The position numbers and the translations under genes were made by a program. A DNA stretch of 32,223 bases, taken from UHGV virus genome UHGV-1520234. One strand, given 5' to 3'. Shown in pieces: positions 4,712 to 32,176 of the stretch (within the stretch, counting starts at the first letter, position 1; every line of letters starts with the position of its first letter). The notes beneath the pieces were generated by a model. The model worked only from the letters and a program-made list of their open reading frames with translations. It did not search any database and was not told the origin of the DNA. The stretch is from a virus.

Positions 4712-5626
4712 TCAGTAACGATGCAGTGAAGGCGGCAACTCTTTGTTCTTAAGTCTTACCCATGCGGAAAGATTCGTTGGTCCGTCTGGCTCATTGATAT
4801 CAACATCTCGTGTGTGGTTGATTAAAACGTCTCTCGCCATTCCGATAACATACGAAAACTCATGACCGTAGTCGTAGCATCTTCCGGAATAGTTCGATTG
4901 AATTTGTTTTAATGCCGGATACAGTTCGCGGAATAATGCCTGTGATCGGTTAGCATAATCCCACAACCATACAAGGCTGTTTGCTTCTTTTGCAGAAAGC
5001 TCGTTGGTGCTCTTCTCTTGTTTGCCAATGAACTCACCTTCAAGTGGAACTCGAGCTGCAAGTGACAGTGCTTCGGTAAACTGCTCCTCACTGATTTCTT
5101 TGTACGAACAGCCAAAATGAGATTTCAGTGACGACCACATGGTGATCATCGCCTTCGCCTGTTTTTCTTTTGGCAGAGACTGACCGCGACTCATGACGAG
5201 TTGTTTAATAGCTTCCTGCTGTTCAGTGGTGATTTTACCCGGCAACGCCTTTTTAGCTTTCGGTGTATTTCCGTAAGACCCCGTTTTACGAATGGATGGC
5301 AAAACTTCAGCTGTCACCCATTTGCGGAATTTGTGCGGGACTGAACCTTTATTGACGGCATCACGGCAGCGCAGAACCAATGTATACATACCTGATTCGC
5401 TCACAATGCTTAAATTCTGCTCACCACCAAGGGTGTAACTTAAAGTTACTCCCTTCTCATCGTCATCAAGTGCAGTAAGCGCCTTGCGTGAGTTAGTCAG
5501 AGTTAAAGCATCACAAACATCTTTTGCTACAAACCACGGCTCACCGCACCTGTTGATGACGCGGATTTCACTGTCGCCGAATTTGAAGATGGTGAAATCG
5601 TTTTGTGCCTTTGCTATACTTTTCAT
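4712..5626 (-). CDS. ant: Antirepressor (Bro-N domain, P22 Ant-like)
   Basis: 304-aa ORF with an ATG start; N-terminus ([30 protein letters not shown]...[12 protein letters not shown]...[12 protein letters not shown]) matches the Bro-N antirepressor signature. Lies downstream of an arc-like gene as in P22 immI. Confidence 0.7.
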
Positions 5627-18408: not shown

Positions 18409-19726
18409 TCTCGATATCCTCGTCGGTAATAGATGCCCCGATGCCGGTTACGTCAGAATTTTCGCGCAAATCAGTCATAGCGGCTTTCAGTGTCATCAGA
18501 CCATCACCCAGCGCCGTACTGATTGCGTTGGTAGTGTTTAACGCCACCGTTGAGCGATCGACATCAGACATTTGCCAGAGCGGGTTAAACTCAAACGTGA
18601 AATCGTCCGGCAGCGGCTTGCCAAGCTCCGAACGATGCATGATGTCCAGTATCCGCCGCACCGGAAGACGTAAACGCCTCTCCTGTAACGAGCTTACCCG
18701 GTCGTAATAGTTGGCAAGGTCTGCATCGCCGGTAGAAAATCCTTTCGGGGACTGTCCGAACAACCGCACCAGTGGGATACCAACAGCGCCACTAATCTGC
18801 TCAGCGAACTGCGAAAGGATGTCATCCAGACCACTGAAGCTGTACTGATGGGTTTCAAACTTATCCCGCGAGTCCATGAGCGTCATGCCTTCATTGCTCT
18901 GGAACTGTCGAATCAGGTCGATATTCTTCAGCAACGCTTCATACGCAGGACCACCAAGTGCGATAAGCTCGCGTAGCTTCTCCACGCTGTAGGTACGCAA
19001 ATGCGCCTTGTAGACCAGCTGCGCCGCGCCGACAGTAGCGCTGTCGAACGCGGTAAGACGATCCCAGATACGCTCTACAACCGACATTCCCCATTCGTTC
19101 TCGGTCATCTTCTGCTGGAATGGCAGCGTGACGCCATCAAAGCGAATCAGACGACTGTGATGAATGCGCCAGGCAGGAATTCCCGTTGCTGTGGTCACCA
19201 CATCGTAAAACTCAGGTTTACCCAGGTCCGGCCCCATATCTTTAATGCGGCGGGTCAGCACTGGGTTAATCATCCAGCGGTCGAGCGGGAGAATGCCCTT
19301 AAACTTGCCTTCTCCAATGGTTTCGGGTCGCAGCGGGGTCATTGGTGCCTGCCCCTCAATCATGATGAAACCCACCGCGCCGCCGTAGAGACGCGACCAT
19401 TTCAGCACGTCGTTCAGCGCATCCCAGATTTGCAACTCATCCAGTTGTGATTCGAGAATGCCGCGATCTTTTGCATCAATTTCCGAAGTGATGCGAATGC
19501 CTTTGCGGGTCATATCATCCGGGATAGCATCGACCGCTTCGCCGATGATCCAGGACGAACGATAGGACCATTCCACCAGCATGCGGTTGCGACTGGTGAA
19601 GTTAGCCCGGTAGGTCGATGCTGAGTGCTGGTTAGGCGTCTGCATTCCCACGCGGGCGACAAAGTTCTCATAGCCATCAGCGGTGGCCTGCGCAGTTCTC
19701 CGCAGGGCTTGTTTGTTTCGTGCCAT
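18260..19726 (-). CDS. Portal protein
   Basis: 488-aa ORF immediately downstream of the large terminase (ATGA overlap), with an acidic C-terminal tail. Confidence 0.7.
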   Translation of the reverse strand: MARNKQALRRTAQATADGYENFVARVGMQTPNQHSASTYRANFTSRNRMLVEWSYRSSWIIGEAVDAIPDDMTRKGIRITSEIDAKDRGILESQLDELQIWDALNDVLKWSRLYGGAVGFIMIEGQAPMTPLRPETIGEGKFKGILPLDRWMINPVLTRRIKDMGPDLGKPEFYDVVTTATGIPAWRIHHSRLIRFDGVTLPFQQKMTENEWGMSVVERIWDRLTAFDSATVGAAQLVYKAHLRTYSVEKLRELIALGGPAYEALLKNIDLIRQFQSNEGMTLMDSRDKFETHQYSFSGLDDILSQFAEQISGAVGIPLVRLFGQSPKGFSTGDADLANYYDRVSSLQERRLRLPVRRILDIMHRSELGKPLPDDFTFEFNPLWQMSDVDRSTVALNTTNAISTALGDGLMTLKAAMTDLRENSDVTGIGASITDEDIENAEDEAPPGIGELDDKPPEPPGGDPISNEPTADSAGGRRHRKWSLRWFK

Positions 19727-21348
19727 CAGGCCTGTCTCCCTAGCAGCTCCCAGATGTTCAGGGCTGAATTCATTGGCGCGTAGCTGATCATCACCGAGTC
19801 GGCAAGGTTTGGCGACCGGGTTCCATCAGGCTGTTTATCAATAACGATTTTTCCCACACCATTAATGGAATAGGTCGGCTGCGAAAGCTCGATGATGAGT
19901 TTATCTTTGAGTGCCATGCCACTGCTGATTGAGATGATTTCGTCCGGGTTGTAAGCCATACCTTCAATCACGGCGCGCCAGGTATTCTGAAAAAGTTTAC
20001 GTAACCGCCACCAGCTCTGGGCTTTGGCGTTAGCGAAGAAGTCCTTGTTCAGACGTGCGGCTTGCCCGTTGTCACCGCGCACCGCTTCGTCGTCCGGATC
20101 AAACACCGCGCCGCTACCGCGAAACGGTGTAGCGAGTATTGACGGTCGACGCGCAGCGTTACGCTGTTCGTTGATAGCGCGTGCATCGCCGCGAACGCCA
20201 GCGCCCAGCCCGTCCTCATCAAAGCGAAACTCTTCGAGGTTGTCCTGTTCGCAAAAACCGAAGACCTTCTCGACGGACTGATAAATGTCGCTGCCCACAC
20301 CGGACCATTCCCGCACATTCTCCAGGAGGAAGCCATGACGGGTGGAAAAGGCATTTTTGTCCCTGCCTTCGTCGGCGACATCCATCGCGCCAAGTCGTTT
20401 GCCTGTTGGCTGGATCCCCAGTTTGATATGTGCATCAACGGCAGCCTGTACCCATTCGGATGGAATCAGGACGCCTTCCGCTGATGCGCTGTAGTTCAGG
20501 TCAAGTTCCTGTGCCACCACCACCGGATTATCGATTTTCTCGCATTCCCTGCGATACCACTCTTCATCCTTGCGAGGATCATCCCGCCAGTGGAATGTGA
20601 ATACCGGTATCTTCCCGCCATGACGCTTCTGAGCGAACGGGTTCGCCATGCCGTTAACTGAACTCAGGTCGATACGGCAACGCGTCGTTTGTGACAACGC
20701 CGCATCAATCAGCAAAGGACGCTGAAGGAATGCAGCCTCATCAACCAGATAAAGCGTGGTACGGTCACCACGACCAATATTATCGCCAGCCTCGCCTTTG
20801 ATAACGGCACCAGTTTCAGGAAACTCAACACGCATATATGGCGCGTGCTTCTTCTCGCTCCACGAACCGCGAAACTCTACAGGTAGCGTTTCCACGAACT
20901 TGCGCGCCTTCCAGAACAACGCTTTCGGGTCACCAGTGCTGTCGACGTATTCCTCTTTACGGGAGCCGAAACCGATAACCATTTCTTTGTTGAAGAGACA
21001 AAGCGAGCAGGCCAGTCCGATCGCGGTCCAACTGAGCCCCATTTCACGGGATTTTTCGGTAATACCATTCTCCCGATTACCCCAGCGTTCCATAATCCAG
21101 TGGATCCACTCCTCCTGCTTAGGGAAGAGTAAAAACGGAATGGTCACCGGCAGGCCATAATCAATATTACGCGGGTCCGTTGTCATGCCCCAGTCGATGA
21201 TGAACTGAGCCGGGTTGGTCCGGTAAAACTGCTTCAATACGGGCAATATTTCAGGATTCTGGCGAATGCGCTGTAGGCGTTCCATCCGCCATTCAAAAAC
21301 TATCTGGTAATCAGGATGTTTAAAATCGAAGGGGAATGGTAACGGCAT
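19726..21348 (-). CDS. Terminase large subunit
   Basis: 540-aa ORF with an ATG start following the small terminase; contains a Walker B-like LYLVDEAAF and a nuclease-like C-terminal half. Confidence 0.75.
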
Positions 21349-22458: not shown

Positions 22459-23001
22459 TTAATTAGTGAGTCCGGGGATTACGGTTTGCCCGTGCTGTTC
22501 AAGGCGTTCAATTCTCGCCAGTAGCTGAGGCTTCTTAATTTTTCCCCAGCGATTAAGCAGGCGCCCTGACATGCTGGCAACATCCTTCTCTTTCATGTAC
22601 TCCAGCATTACGGCATTTCTCTCTTCTTCAAATTGACGATGACCAACCTGAAGCATGGCGTACATCCAGTTAAATGCGTTGATGTAAGCAATTTTGATAC
22701 GCATTGCTTCTTTTTTGGTGTAGGACATAACCAAAAGCATCAACCCATCCTTGCGGAGACGGTAGAATTTTTGCGGCTTACCATTCTGTAACTCATTGTT
22801 TTTATAGCAAAGCTCAAAGTTGAGCTTTGTATCAAACTCAGGAGGGCAAGCTTCTATGGTTCGTTCAATGTCACGAACCACGTTCTTCGGCAGCTTTCCA
22901 AATGCTTTTGCCACCATAAAAGAATCTGTAACCGGATCGTTGTTTGCTACAAAAATTAGGTCTCTGAAATCTATATCGTTAACAACGGTTGGGTAGTTCA
23001 T
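22459..23001 (-). CDS. rha: Rha-family phage regulatory protein
   Basis: 180-aa ORF with an ATG start; N-terminal region (VAKAFGKLPKNVVRDIERTIEACPPEF...NFELCYKNN...YRLRKDGLMLLVMSYTKKEAMRIKIAYINAFN) matches the Rha-domain pattern. Located between lysis genes and terminase, as rha is in P22. Confidence 0.55.
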   Translation of the reverse strand: MNYPTVVNDIDFRDLIFVANNDPVTDSFMVAKAFGKLPKNVVRDIERTIEACPPEFDTKLNFELCYKNNELQNGKPQKFYRLRKDGLMLLVMSYTKKEAMRIKIAYINAFNWMYAMLQVGHRQFEEERNAVMLEYMKEKDVASMSGRLLNRWGKIKKPQLLARIERLEQHGQTVIPGLTN

Positions 23002-26489: not shown

Positions 26490-27097
26490 GCGGCCTCACT
26501 TCTGCTATTTCGCAGGTCTTTGAGTTTCTTCTGATACTCCGCCTTGATGGCCATGCACTCTTCGACAGTCCAACGATGGCGGCTATGGTTTGATTCGATT
26601 TCGTCTACTGCTTCCTGCCCGATGCGGCTAATCAGTTCGACGCGATACGGAACGAGATTTCCGCTTTTGTGCTGGTTGCACACCACGCATTGCTTGTGAA
26701 TATTGCGTTCATCAAATCGGAGTTGAGGTGCCGCAGCAGTTGTCCGGTAATGTCCGGCATCCCACTGAGCAGACGTGAGCGTTCCGCACGAGATACATGG
26801 TAAGTCGCGGTCTCTTTCTCTGATGAAAGCGTTTACGGCTTGTTGGGCTTGTTTAATCCAGTAACTGCGGGGCTTTAAGGCGAGTTTTCGAATCTTAAGT
26901 TTATCTTTCTGTTTCTGCTCCTCTCGTCTTCGTTTCTTCTCTGCTGCTTTTTCCGCTTTTTCGCGTTCTTTACTTCGTCGTTCGAGTGCTATCTTGGTTC
27001 CACACTCTGGAGAGCACCACCACTGATTAGCGAATGCAGGGTGAAACCATTCCCGACATTCATCGTTTTTACATCGTCTTCGCGCTGGTTTAGCCAT
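26486..27097 (-). CDS. ninG: NinG recombination protein (Rap-like)
   Basis: 203-aa ORF with an ATG start overlapping the ninF stop; cysteine-rich (CxxC pairs), matching lambda NinG in size and position. Confidence 0.8.
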
Positions 27098-27266
27098 CGT
27101 CTTCTTCCTCGTACATTGAGCTATTCGGATCGCTCATCAGTTCTGCGCAGCAGTGCTCACACACGTGAACTTCCAGCACATGCAGCTTCTGGCCGCAGTT
27201 AGCGCACGTTAAAGCCCGCTCGACGCTTTCTTTCTGGTATTGAAGGGATTGGGATGGGCTAAGCAT
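27090..27266 (-). CDS. ninF: NinF (58 aa, not in the ORF track)
   Basis: Translated by hand: [58 protein letters not shown]; ATG at 27266 overlaps the upstream stop (TAATG). Confidence 0.65.
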
Positions 27267-27625
27267 TATTGGATTCTCTGCATCATGAGAAAGACAATCA
27301 TGGCGGCGCGGAGGGGATTTTCATGTATAGCTCGCTTAGATTTACAGTAGGCCACACCGCGTGCACCCCACTCGTCTTCATCGAGATTGATAATGCTAAT
27401 CCTGTATTTTTCAATAATCGGCCATGCGTCTGCTGGGTTTGCGCATGGGTTAAAGGATCCGCGCTCAACTTCTACTTCAACTGCGTCTCCGTTTACAACG
27501 TCTCCCTCAAATGAGACAAACACCATATCGCCATTCTCACCTTCTTTGTAATCCGGTGATCCGTTATGAATGGCTTCGAATACCGCCACGTTAATTTCAA
27601 AATCACTTAACTGTGAATAATCCAT
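27266..27625 (-). CDS. Hypothetical acidic protein inserted between ninE and ninF
   Basis: Track ORF begins at a GTG at 27667; ATG candidates at 27631 and 27625 (MDYSQLSDFEINVAV...), the latter with GAGGA 8 nt upstream. Canonical lambda has no gene between ninE and ninF. Confidence 0.5.
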   Translation of the reverse strand: MDYSQLSDFEINVAVFEAIHNGSPDYKEGENGDMVFVSFEGDVVNGDAVEVEVERGSFNPCANPADAWPIIEKYRISIINLDEDEWGARGVAYCKSKRAIHENPLRAAMIVFLMMQRIQ

Positions 27626-27627
27626 TG

Positions 27628-27804
27628 TCATTTCCTCGCACGATGTCTTAGCCACCGGATATCCCACAGGTGAGCCGTGTAGTTGAAGGTTTTTACGTCA
27701 GATTCTTTTGGGATTGGCTTGCGTTTATTTCTGGAGCGTTTCGTTGGAAGGTATTTGCAGTTTTCACAGATTATGTCGGTGATACTTCGTCGCTGTCTCG
27801 CCAC
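27628..27804 (-). CDS. ninE: NinE-like protein (about 58 aa, not in the ORF track)
   Basis: Hand translation from a GTG at 27804: [57 protein letters not shown]; AGGAGG lies only 3 nt upstream, so the exact start is uncertain. Confidence 0.5.
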
Positions 27805-29327: not shown

Positions 29328-31208
29328 TTAATACTCCGTCACGTTTTCCTGTCGCCACGCCTCGTCATATTCCGATTTCGGCATATTGGCGATGTAGCTA
29401 TATGGCGATCCTGATTCAAGTTGCAGGAACTGGTGCGATTGCTCGTCAAGGAACAACGGGACACCACCTTCCCAACCTTCGCCGTTACGTTGTTTTTCAA
29501 GCATCAAAACAGATGCCGGAGATGCCAGTAGCTGTTCGTCCTTCTCTGACATCTTTTCACCACTCTGAACTCTCTGTAACGCTCTCTCGCGAGCCTTGTT
29601 ACGCCAGATGATGAAAAGGTTGTCTGTCAGGTCTGTTATCGCTCCAGAGCCTTTTACGTCCATTTTCCCGGTTGGTTTTTCTTCGCTGTCTCCTTTTCGC
29701 GAGTGAGTAACGAGAATGACGTGGGAGTTTGTTTTGTTTTTGAAGTCGCAAATCGAGTCAACAAACGCCTTCTGCCCGTTATAGTCATCGTCGCCTATGC
29801 CACATTTCATCAGGCTGTCGATGATGAATAACTGGATCCCGTATCGGCGGCGAGCGTAGTCGAATATTTCGATCAGCCTGTCGGCTTTCGCCGTTCCGGT
29901 CAGGCCAAACACCCAAAGTCTTTCGTCATAAAATTTAAATGCAGAGTCAATTTCCAGCACTGGCGGAATCTTGCAGCACGTCGCCTGACGGGTAAGGCGC
30001 TTAAGGAGAATACCAGGCTTCAGCTCAAGTGACGCGATGCACGTCTTCACACCCTGACGCATTGCCTCAAGTGCCATATGCCCGACAACCTCCGTTTTTC
30101 CGTGACCGTTCACACCATTGACCAGCGTCAACTCTGCCTCACGGAACTGGAATTTATCTGCCAGAGATTCCCACGGTGGATTAAACAGATACTGCTGCTT
30201 GCCGTAGAAAGCGTTGATAGTGTCCTGGTAAAACTCTCGCGCGCTGTAGAGTTCTTCAGGATCGAAGTAGGATGCCGTGCCGATGTACTGCCAGATTTCA
30301 TCCTCGGTAACACCGTTCATCAGGCATTCGTTGATGTCTTTGTACGGCAGAGTAACAAGACGGCAACGATGTTCACCGAGTCGGCTTGCGATTTCCCTTG
30401 CGGCTTCACGACCAACATCATCAACGTCCATCGAGATGAATATTTCCTCAAACCTGTCGAGGTTGTGATACTCAAACTCAATCCACTGCTGCTTAGCGCC
30501 TTTCCCGCCACCAAACGGCACGGATAACGCCGAGATGCCGTATTGCGCATAGCTCATACAATCAATTTCGCCTTCGCAAAGTACAACCGCCCTCACGCCA
30601 GCGTCCAGAGCCTGCCATCCGAACAGACAAGGTTCGCAATCACCTTCTGCCATAATGACTTTCTTCCCGTCCGGGCGCTCAGTGCTGATTCGCTTGACCT
30701 GCAACAACTCACCATCGCGTTTGTACGGAAGCACCAGAGCATCCAGTTCTCGTTCTCCATTCCACACCTTGCCGCTGACAACCTCGTAGCGCTTTACGAC
30801 TTCTGGCGATATGCCACGCGATTGCAGGTACTCAAGATGGGATTCTGTTCTGGTAACGTAGCGGGCGATTTTCTTGCGATCAGGCCTGGAGAATTTCTTC
30901 TCACGTCTGGCATCGAAATGGTGATCGTCATCCTTGATACCGAGAAATGCTTTCGCTTCCTGCATAGCCTGATGCAGGTTAATTCCACGACATGCCATCC
31001 ACAAATCAAGCATGTCACCGCCGTCTCCCTCAGCGAAATCAGCCCATTTTTTCTTGCCGCTAAGGTTGACCTTAAGGCTGTTTCCCTTGTCACCGTTGAC
31101 GTTACCGGCAACCCACTCATGCCCCTCTTTCTTGCCGTTTGGCAACAGGTGCGGAGCCACCCTGTCAACCTGCGCCCAAAGCAGGTCACTGAGTTCACTT
31201 GGCGTCAT
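29328..31208 (-). CDS. Bifunctional DNA primase / replicative helicase (Toprim N-terminal, DnaB-like C-terminal)
   Basis: 626-aa ORF with an ATG start; central acidic Toprim-like segment (VVLCEGEIDCMSYAQ) and a C-terminal Walker A (GVNGHGKTE) with a Walker B-like LFIIDS. Confidence 0.75.
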   Translation of the reverse strand: MTPSELSDLLWAQVDRVAPHLLPNGKKEGHEWVAGNVNGDKGNSLKVNLSGKKKWADFAEGDGGDMLDLWMACRGINLHQAMQEAKAFLGIKDDDHHFDARREKKFSRPDRKKIARYVTRTESHLEYLQSRGISPEVVKRYEVVSGKVWNGERELDALVLPYKRDGELLQVKRISTERPDGKKVIMAEGDCEPCLFGWQALDAGVRAVVLCEGEIDCMSYAQYGISALSVPFGGGKGAKQQWIEFEYHNLDRFEEIFISMDVDDVGREAAREIASRLGEHRCRLVTLPYKDINECLMNGVTEDEIWQYIGTASYFDPEELYSAREFYQDTINAFYGKQQYLFNPPWESLADKFQFREAELTLVNGVNGHGKTEVVGHMALEAMRQGVKTCIASLELKPGILLKRLTRQATCCKIPPVLEIDSAFKFYDERLWVFGLTGTAKADRLIEIFDYARRRYGIQLFIIDSLMKCGIGDDDYNGQKAFVDSICDFKNKTNSHVILVTHSRKGDSEEKPTGKMDVKGSGAITDLTDNLFIIWRNKARERALQRVQSGEKMSEKDEQLLASPASVLMLEKQRNGEGWEGGVPLFLDEQSHQFLQLESGSPYSYIANMPKSEYDEAWRQENVTEY

Positions 31209-31315: not shown

Positions 31316-32176
31316 TCACCTGTCGAAAAACACGTAGCCAGTTTTCGATACGGTGATTGCGGATGATGGTTTGGATTGTGGTTGAATGGTTTCTGGCTTT
31401 TCGTCGTTCCAGCGCTGACCGTTCAAGTAGCTCGATGGTAACAACCTGTCGAATCCGAACTGCTTACCATTCCTGCATGCGATGTCTTCTGCCAGCATCG
31501 TGGCAAACTCGCTTGCCGTACCCCTGGTAGTTTTACGCCATTCCCTGAACTGTGTTCTGAATGCCGAAGCTGCGTTTTTTTTCCCGGCTTTCCGCATGCC
31601 TGCACACCAGAATATTTCCTCGAATGCCTTGTCGGTTTCTTCGTGACGGTCAGGTGATTTTTCACACTCCGTCCGAACACTTTCGGACATAGTGTTTTTA
31701 TTATTTCTTTTTTCTTTTGTAATAGTTTCTTTTGTGTGTCCCTGTTTTGGTGACAGCGCTGTCACCGTTTTGGTGACACTTTTTGTCACCAATGCAGTGA
31801 CATTATCACCAGAGTAGTGACACCCTTCGATTTGCCATTCCTCGATGTTCTTGTTAGGCCCGATTTGCTGGCCTTCGCGAAGGATAACCTTCATCGCGAT
31901 AAGCTCATTCTTGGCCTTGTTTACCTTCTGTCTTGGCAGCCTGGTAATTTGAGCTAACTGACTATCAGAGATGCAATCCATCTTTTTACCGTAGCCGTAT
32001 GTTTTACGGCATATGGCGTGGGCAACCTTGCTCTGATTTTTCGTTAAATCTGCGCCGATAAGCTCTTCATACAGGGCATTTGCAAGACGGGTATAACCAT
32101 CTTCAACTTCTGCCACACGACGCTCCACAGGCCGTTGTGAAGGCCTTAAATGTGTTACGGTTGCAAGATTACTCAT
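31316..32176 (-). CDS. O: Replication initiator, lambda O-like N-terminal domain
   Basis: 286-aa ORF with an ATG start and GGAGAAAGG RBS; the N-terminal ~110 aa align with lambda O as recalled (DGYxRLxNxLxExxxGADLTKxQxKV...KTYGxxKxMDxIxDSQLxxITxLP...GPNKNIxEW); iterons lie within the coding sequence. Confidence 0.75.
   Translation of the reverse strand: MSNLATVTHLRPSQRPVERRVAEVEDGYTRLANALYEELIGADLTKNQSKVAHAICRKTYGYGKKMDCISDSQLAQITRLPRQKVNKAKNELIAMKVILREGQQIGPNKNIEEWQIEGCHYSGDNVTALVTKSVTKTVTALSPKQGHTKETITKEKRNNKNTMSESVRTECEKSPDRHEETDKAFEEIFWCAGMRKAGKKNAASAFRTQFREWRKTTRGTASEFATMLAEDIACRNGKQFGFDRLLPSSYLNGQRWNDEKPETIQPQSKPSSAITVSKTGYVFFDR
31694..31735. other. AT-rich putative DNA-unwinding region of the origin
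   Basis: AT-rich stretch (tttttattatttcttttttcttttgtaatagtttcttttg) immediately on the O-downstream side of the iterons, the same order as in the lambda ori. Confidence 0.5.
31735..31825. repeat. Replication origin iterons inside the O gene
   Basis: Four spaced inverted-repeat units built on GTGACA/TGTCAC half-sites: perfect 18-bp palindrome ggtgacagcgctgtcacc (31749-31766), ggtgacactttttgtcacc (31772-31790), gtgacattatcacc (31797-31810), gtgacac (31818-31824). Confidence 0.6.

Follow-up and report, generated by a model that had tools for sequence, protein, structure and literature searches.

The additional open reading frame between ninE and ninF in the lambda-like nin region of UHGV-1520234 is an allele of ninX

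What separates ninE from ninF in the lambda-like nin region of the virus genome UHGV-1520234, and what might its product do? An earlier note, made from the sequence alone, had pointed to an extra acidic open reading frame (ORF) of about 119 amino acids (aa) between these two genes, coupled to its neighbors at both ends, and had supposed that it might be one of a family of accessory ORFs from the nin regions of other lambdoid phages. In the window analyzed here, which is the whole 32,223-nucleotide (nt) stretch and in which the nin-region genes are all read from the minus strand, this ORF spans 121 codons from its first ATG or 119 from its second (Table 1) and encodes an acidic product with an isoelectric point (pI) of 4.4 and a net charge of -11. 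We identify it as a functional allele of ninX. The gene occupies a place between ninE and ninF at which P22 and many prophages of enterobacteria also have it and at which lambda, HK97, and HK022 have nothing; we put the probability of this reading at roughly 0.97. The supposed family is thereby given a name, NinX (PF10765), after the P22 gene.

Several lines of comparison carry this identification. The profile search that the earlier note had proposed for the product returned PF10765 (Phage_P22_NinX, formerly DUF2591) with 70 bits, where the gathering score is 22.6 (E 2.6e-19), and the match is full-length, with protein residues 4-118 aligned to profile positions 1-114 of 114. The product also matches phrog_444 (E 8e-42), which PHROG annotates as 'unknown function', and the window ORF shares 49% identity with P22 NinX over 120 of 121 residues (tblastn E 1.6e-24). 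Counted from either start, its length falls within the small single-domain range of ~100-135 aa, and all of the family motifs are present, namely Y-x3-S-D-x3-N, P-C-N-N-P-x-D-A-W-P-I-I, and P-L-R-A-A-M-I-x-F-L, with one substitution, an alanine at residue 64 (A64), a position at which 98% of members have N. Searches of NCBIfam and PADLOC gave no match for the window NinX. A spurious similarity to the Pfam family and to P22 is practically excluded as an alternative, and we are highly confident of the identity taken together with the general description of NinX given below, a description that does not extend to a specific target. The gene itself is already known: it has been named, has its own Pfam family, and is routinely annotated in RefSeq and phage records.

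Variation among alleles indicates, at the level of sequence, that ninX is a real gene under purifying selection and not a chance reading frame. Purifying selection is indicated because 33 distinct DNA alleles from 63 prophage loci contain no internal stops and have a ratio of per-site nonsynonymous to synonymous variants (pN/pS) of ~0.32; a chance reading frame is excluded by this ratio, the Pfam and PHROG matches at the E values given above, and the 1622 clusters of homologues at 90% identity obtained from one query. These observations also bear on whether ninX might lack a function of its own, as selectively neutral filler or as a decaying remnant that only linkage in the nin mosaic preserves. 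The nin genes, of which about ten per phage are drawn from a pool of 30-50, are non-essential in the laboratory, and nin-region deletions of Sf6 spread in experimental passage (PMC5630979); P22 deleted for ninB-ninH, with ninX explicitly included, still produces viable phage (PMC11016777), and NinX is therefore dispensable for plaque formation. Such dispensability would suit neutral filler, but the low pN/pS and the lack of stop codons in the 33 alleles, the near-invariance of the motifs from Enterobacteria to phages of Vibrio, Aeromonas, and Burkholderia and a Flavobacteriaceae-labelled contig, and the spread of NinX representatives over 692 clusters at 50% identity all weigh against it and leave it barely credible.

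The start and the junctions of the gene can be read from the minus strand, where the upstream junction is GCGAGGAA-ATG-ACA-ATG. A GAGG motif within the 3' end of ninE (27637-27634) lies 8 nt upstream of the second ATG (27625-27623) and only 2 nt from the first, and from this spacing the second ATG is probably the better-placed start, giving the 119-aa product; a RefSeq-annotated 'phage protein NinX family protein' of the same 119 aa (cluster P0002, 786 member sequences) is 98% identical to the window product. The coupling reported in the earlier note is confirmed at both ends, as the first ninX ATG (27631-27629) overlaps the ninE TGA (27630-27628) in an ATGA junction and the ninX TAA (27268-27266) overlaps the ninF ATG (27266-27264) in a TAATG junction. 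We rejected a GTG-extended start giving 133 aa (27266..27667), which overlaps ninE by 40 nt and is used by no annotated homologue. The frame of this extension (27628-27667, minus strand) is the one used by a 179-aa NinE-NinX read-through, cluster P0001, whose 13 member sequences come, every one, from Logan read-archive assemblies and which probably arose through a frameshift in the 3' portion of ninE or through an error of sequencing.

How does this arrangement relate to lambda? Pfam recognizes NinB, PAPS_reduct (the NinC domain), NinD, NinE, NinF, NinG, and NinH among the flanking ORFs, and by tblastn the products are 99% (NinB), 99% (NinC), 100% (NinD), 95% (NinE), 89% (NinF), 98% (NinG), 100% (NinH), 94% (NinI), and 99% (Q) identical to those of lambda and stand in the lambda order, as had been described; by sequence, then, the window region is essentially the nin operon of lambda with one gene added. 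A gene at the same position in lambda would have spoken against an addition, and there is none: in the lambda record ninE (42090-42272) runs directly into ninF (42269-42439); lambda, HK97, and HK022 all have ninE joined to ninF, and tblastn detected no NinX in their nin regions; and 933W, which the earlier note had also named for comparison, retains only a ninE remnant. The annotated order in P22 is ninE-ninX-ninF.

The picture of an ORF inserted into a lambda-like region stands insofar as the gene is extra relative to lambda; it does not stand as a clean insertion. In a four-way alignment of the window with lambda, P22, and HK97, homology to lambda and HK97 breaks off at ...GCGAGGAAA, close to where ninE ends, and returns at GAAAGCGTCGAG, at about codon 13 of ninF. 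Besides ninX, the intervening block contains the stop region of ninE and the initial ~12 codons of ninF, and the last two codons of ninE differ as well. On this alignment ninX is a replacement of 35 nt by 400 nt relative to lambda. The N-terminus of NinF occurs in two versions, one with ninX (window, P22) and another without it (lambda, HK97), as a comparison of window positions 27090-27266 with positions 2270-2440 of our lambda locus L001 brings out. Since the two versions track ninX, the boundary of the ninX cassette lies inside ninF and not at the gene junction, and the ninF N-terminus that the cassette brings accounts for a window NinF that is 98% identical to that of P22 but only 89% to that of lambda. 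The C-terminal tail of NinX is likewise dimorphic (27266-27285, minus strand): the window protein ends in MMQRIQ, those of P22 and of many alleles from E. coli in MQDANNA. A 1-nt indel shortly before the ninF ATG accounts for the difference between QRIQ and QDANNA, and the same indel alters the ninF overlap, which is TAATG in the window and 8 nt in P22.

The gene is common. DNA that is 98-99% identical across ninE-ninX-ninF is found in the phages IME10 (where ninX is annotated), APC_JM3.2, N7, Huey, and vB_EcoP-720R6, and a ninX or DUF2591 annotation accompanies this near-identical DNA in IME10, APC_JM3.2, and vB_EcoP-720R6. Among 5426 complete E. coli genomes, 1130 (~21%) contain DNA matching ninX, and RefSeq applies the name 'phage protein NinX family protein' to these copies. 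The allele of the window is matched along 80% or more of its length in 235 genomes. Matches in E. coli are mostly confined to the conserved gene ends, in line with the mosaic alleles described below. At the protein level, 631 of 50,697 phage records match, 333 of them Vibrio phages, with Salmonella, Klebsiella, Erwinia, Yersinia, Aeromonas, and Proteus among the other host genera, and further carriers include a Burkholderia podovirus and a Flavobacteriaceae-labelled contig.

Across 80 enterobacterial IMG/VR loci, the upstream flank is kept in 78, in all of which ninE directly precedes ninX, and ninF follows ninX in 77, while the nin gene sets around ninE-ninX-ninF are otherwise variable. This invariant order wherever the flank is kept, the tight ATGA and TAATG coupling, and the complementary charges of NinE (+12) and NinX (-11) would fit a phage-internal complex in which NinX neutralizes or chaperones the very basic NinE or pairs with the zinc-ribbon NinF. 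We nonetheless judge such a partnership decidedly unlikely: lambda, HK97, and HK022 have ninE and ninF without ninX, tight coupling is general to the whole nin region (PMC8022706), and NinX proteins from Vibrio phages, marine sources, and soil occur without relatives of NinE or NinF and among neighbors of mixed charge. We compared seven distant homologues, drawn from Vibrio phages, from an assembled bacterial genome in which the gene lies in an integrase-flanked, prophage-like region, and from metagenomic contigs of marine, soil, and other origin. Small early ORFs surround the gene in these loci, with a primase, helicase, methylase, or dUTPase gene nearby; no constant neighbor was found in the seven, and NinE or NinF is adjacent in none.

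Among the 150 best of the 692 representative clusters, almost all proteins are single-domain and 85-160 aa long, and a search for domain fusions among longer members found none that was informative about function: the C-terminal extensions of P0274, P0161, and P0193 have no Pfam match, and P0257 (2304 aa) was rejected as a fusion, its match being a spurious one to a repeat protein. In P0249, a 159-aa protein from outside the window, residues 1-44 of this NinX allele are fused to an Rz spanin domain, and this joint implies a prophage deletion from ninX to the lysis genes.

Within the protein, conservation is sharply divided. The helices and the P-C-N-N-P-x-D-A-W-P-I-I motif score 0.62-0.86, against 0.14 and 0.21 for two sheet segments that we call V1 and V2 (Table 1), and the helix-coding DNA of ninX alleles is also conserved at the nucleotide level. 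Within the central motif, N65, P66, D68, A69, W70, and P71 are each at least 90% conserved. The enterobacterial clusters (P0002-P0120) pair at least 11 V2 types with a V1 of the window type, and the V2 type of P22 is found with two different V1 types; judged by these combinations, ninX alleles are internally mosaic, with their halves shuffled. Acidity is a family-wide property: a set of 377 proteins between 85 and 170 aa long, virtually all of them relatives of NinX, has a median pI of 4.46 and a median net charge of -10, and in 91% of the set the pI is below 5.5. R108 is the only conserved basic residue in the family.

The conserved polar residues might instead be taken as the mark of a small enzyme or ligand binder built around Cys63 together with Y5, S9, D10, N14, N65, D68, and R108, a proposal consistent with the invariance of C63 in 136 diverse sequences and with eight polar positions at least 90% conserved. 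These residues, however, lie at the N-terminal ends of the three helices (S-D-x-E, N-P-x-D, and N-P-L-R), where in the structural model they read as helix capping, and we consider an enzyme or ligand binder very unlikely.

That model was built with AlphaFold on an alignment of 136 sequences and has a predicted local distance difference test (pLDDT) score of 92 and a predicted template modelling (pTM) score of 0.83; prediction from the single sequence reached a pLDDT of only 46 and was unusable. Its elements are a helix (10-22), three strands (28-30, 36-46, and 49-60), a helix (66-75), three further strands (79-82, 88-94, and 97-103), and a final helix (106-119), and this confident model thus predicts an alpha/beta protein in which a unit of one helix and three strands occurs twice and is followed by a helix at the C-terminus. 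We rejected a sequence duplication as the origin of the two halves, at the level of sequence, with an hhalign probability of 0.2%. The fold resembles that of two crystal structures, 4PUP (an uncharacterized protein of Burkholderia cenocepacia J2315) and 1R7L (a phage protein of Bacillus cereus ATCC 14579), at a structure-based identity of just 15-19%. Searches of PDB sequences with the window protein, the family profile, and three divergent members returned nothing meaningful and did not detect 4PUP or 1R7L. Both are structural-genomics entries labelled only as uncharacterized, a literature search on the two codes returned nothing relevant, and they therefore add no mechanism. A fold search of BFVD returned uncharacterized phage proteins only.

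A weaker resemblance is to the fold of the double-stranded RNA-binding domain (dsRBD), with its degenerate form that binds proteins included; the alpha-beta-beta-beta-alpha topology of this domain is found in a half of the NinX model. This half could in principle make NinX a binder of double-stranded RNA or of structured or branched DNA, for instance as an aid to recombination by Orf (NinB) and Rap (NinG) or to RNA processing. The dsRBD matches, however, extend over ~55 residues at 2-15% identity, and there is no match to Pfam dsrm, PF10765 being the sole Pfam match at E <= 0.01. A dsRBD contacts RNA through a lysine-rich motif at the start of its last helix; we found neither such basic contact residues nor a basic face in NinX, which has R108 as its one conserved basic residue and a net charge of -11, close to the family median, and the distant homologues are unlinked to NinB or NinG. 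We treat the likeness as one of fold and not of family membership, and nucleic-acid binding of this kind seems to us unlikely.

What, then, might NinX do? The searchable literature reports no function for it, only annotation tables ('unknown') and region-level deletions. Because ninX shares its strand with the nin operon and is translationally coupled to ninE and ninF, it is presumably expressed, by analogy with lambda and P22 biology, from the rightward delayed-early transcript that runs between the replication genes and Q. Its product is predicted to be a small, acidic, single-domain alpha/beta protein with no recognizable catalytic signature, and the family acidity, R108 as the sole conserved basic residue, and the capping-like polar residues suggest that it is neither an enzyme nor a classical nucleic-acid binder. 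We think it reasonably probable that NinX binds another macromolecule stoichiometrically instead of catalyzing a reaction. A possible but tentative extension is that it binds a host protein involved in nucleic-acid handling or in defence, and modulates or inhibits it, during lytic growth; under the same tentative proposal, the conserved helices would serve as a scaffold or common contact and the hypervariable acidic sheets would provide specificity. Our best guess, in short, is a dispensable early protein that would act through binding of a host protein. A more pointed version, which we hold to be doubtful, would make NinX a modular, fast-evolving binder of host proteins, for example a counter-defence decoy, with a three-helix scaffold and two acidic sheet cassettes swapped by recombination in the conserved helix-coding DNA; if this were true, each prophage would carry one of many specificities.

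Several further loci of the window, each on the minus strand, also drew attention. The replication module (29328-31208 and 31316-32176) is not the O/P pair of lambda and consists of an O-like initiator (PF04492) followed by a 626-aa protein that matches Toprim_2 over the Pfam cut-off and AAA_25 and DnaB_C at a borderline level and that by its domains looks like a primase-helicase fusion; this module stands directly upstream of a nin region with 89-100% lambda identity. Two antirepressor-type genes lie outside the immunity region, one for a Rha/ORF11CD3 protein between the lysis genes and the small terminase (22459-23001) and one for a Bro-N/P22_AR_C protein among the tail genes (4712-5626). 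A 540-aa ORF (19726-21348) occupies the large-terminase position between the small terminase and the portal and is annotated by RefSeq as 'TerL protein' in related prophages; a Pfam search with it gave no match at E <= 0.001.

Table 1. Coordinates of ninX, its flanking genes, and its conserved and variable segments in the window.
Feature	Position	Strand	Basis and remarks
ninX ORF from first ATG	27266..27631	-	121 codons; ORF list and raw sequence
Probable ninX coding sequence from second ATG (119 aa, MDYSQL...)	27266..27625	-	GAGG spacing and RefSeq length
GAGG, Shine-Dalgarno-like, within ninE 3' end	27634..27637	-	Sequence reading; putative function
ninE, 58 aa	27628..27804	-	PF05322 NinE, E 3.3e-45; 95% identity to lambda NinE, 98% to P22 NinE
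ninF, 58 aa	27090..27266	-	PF05810 NinF and phrog_672; 98% identity to P22 NinF, 89% to lambda NinF
400-nt block unlike lambda/HK97 (35 nt there)	27231..27630	-	DNA alignment of window, lambda, P22, and HK97
Residues 5-22, N-terminal helix (Y5, S9, D10, N14, V17)	27566..27619	-	Predicted secondary structure (AlphaFold); conservation 0.62
Residues 23-59, V1, first three-stranded sheet	27455..27565	-	Conservation 0.14, gaps 35%; V1 of P22 unrelated
Residues 60-78, most conserved motif (F-x-P-C-N-N-P-x-D-A-W-P-I-I) and helix 2	27398..27454	-	C63 invariant
Residues 79-104, V2, second three-stranded sheet	27320..27397	-	Conservation 0.21
Residues 105-119, C-terminal helix (N-P-L-R-A-A-M-I-x-F-L)	27275..27319	-	Conservation 0.86; L115 invariant

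Whether a lambdoid phage has ninX between ninE and ninF is a textbook case of mosaicism, and the finding carries little weight as a discovery. Mildly new, and descriptive only, are the tie of its fold to two orphan crystal structures, the family-wide acidity, and the combination of conserved helices with shuffled sheets; the stand-alone behavior of the gene in distant genomes offers a further handle on it. The case of ninX shows that an early phage gene can be very common and yet be without an assigned function.

Among known systems, the closest comparison is with NinX of P22, which agrees with the window protein in family, size, conserved motifs, the ninE-ninF slot, and its 'unknown' function. 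The two differ in that the residue 23-59 segment (V1) of the P22 protein is unrelated to that of the window and its second sheet segment is different too, and in that the genetic background of the window is of the lambda type (ninC and ninI present, ninY and ninZ absent) whereas that of P22 is of the P22 type. A functional comparison may be drawn with T7 Ocr and with ArdA, which are small, early, dispensable, strongly acidic anti-restriction proteins of phages and plasmids that bind a host protein. We found no sequence or fold similarity of NinX to a known DNA mimic of the Ocr/ArdA type, and the charge density of classical DNA mimics is higher than that of NinX, whose acidity, although conserved in 91% of the family, is by itself not specific. 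Small size and dispensability are features that NinX has in common with Ocr and ArdA, and early expression would presumably be a further one.
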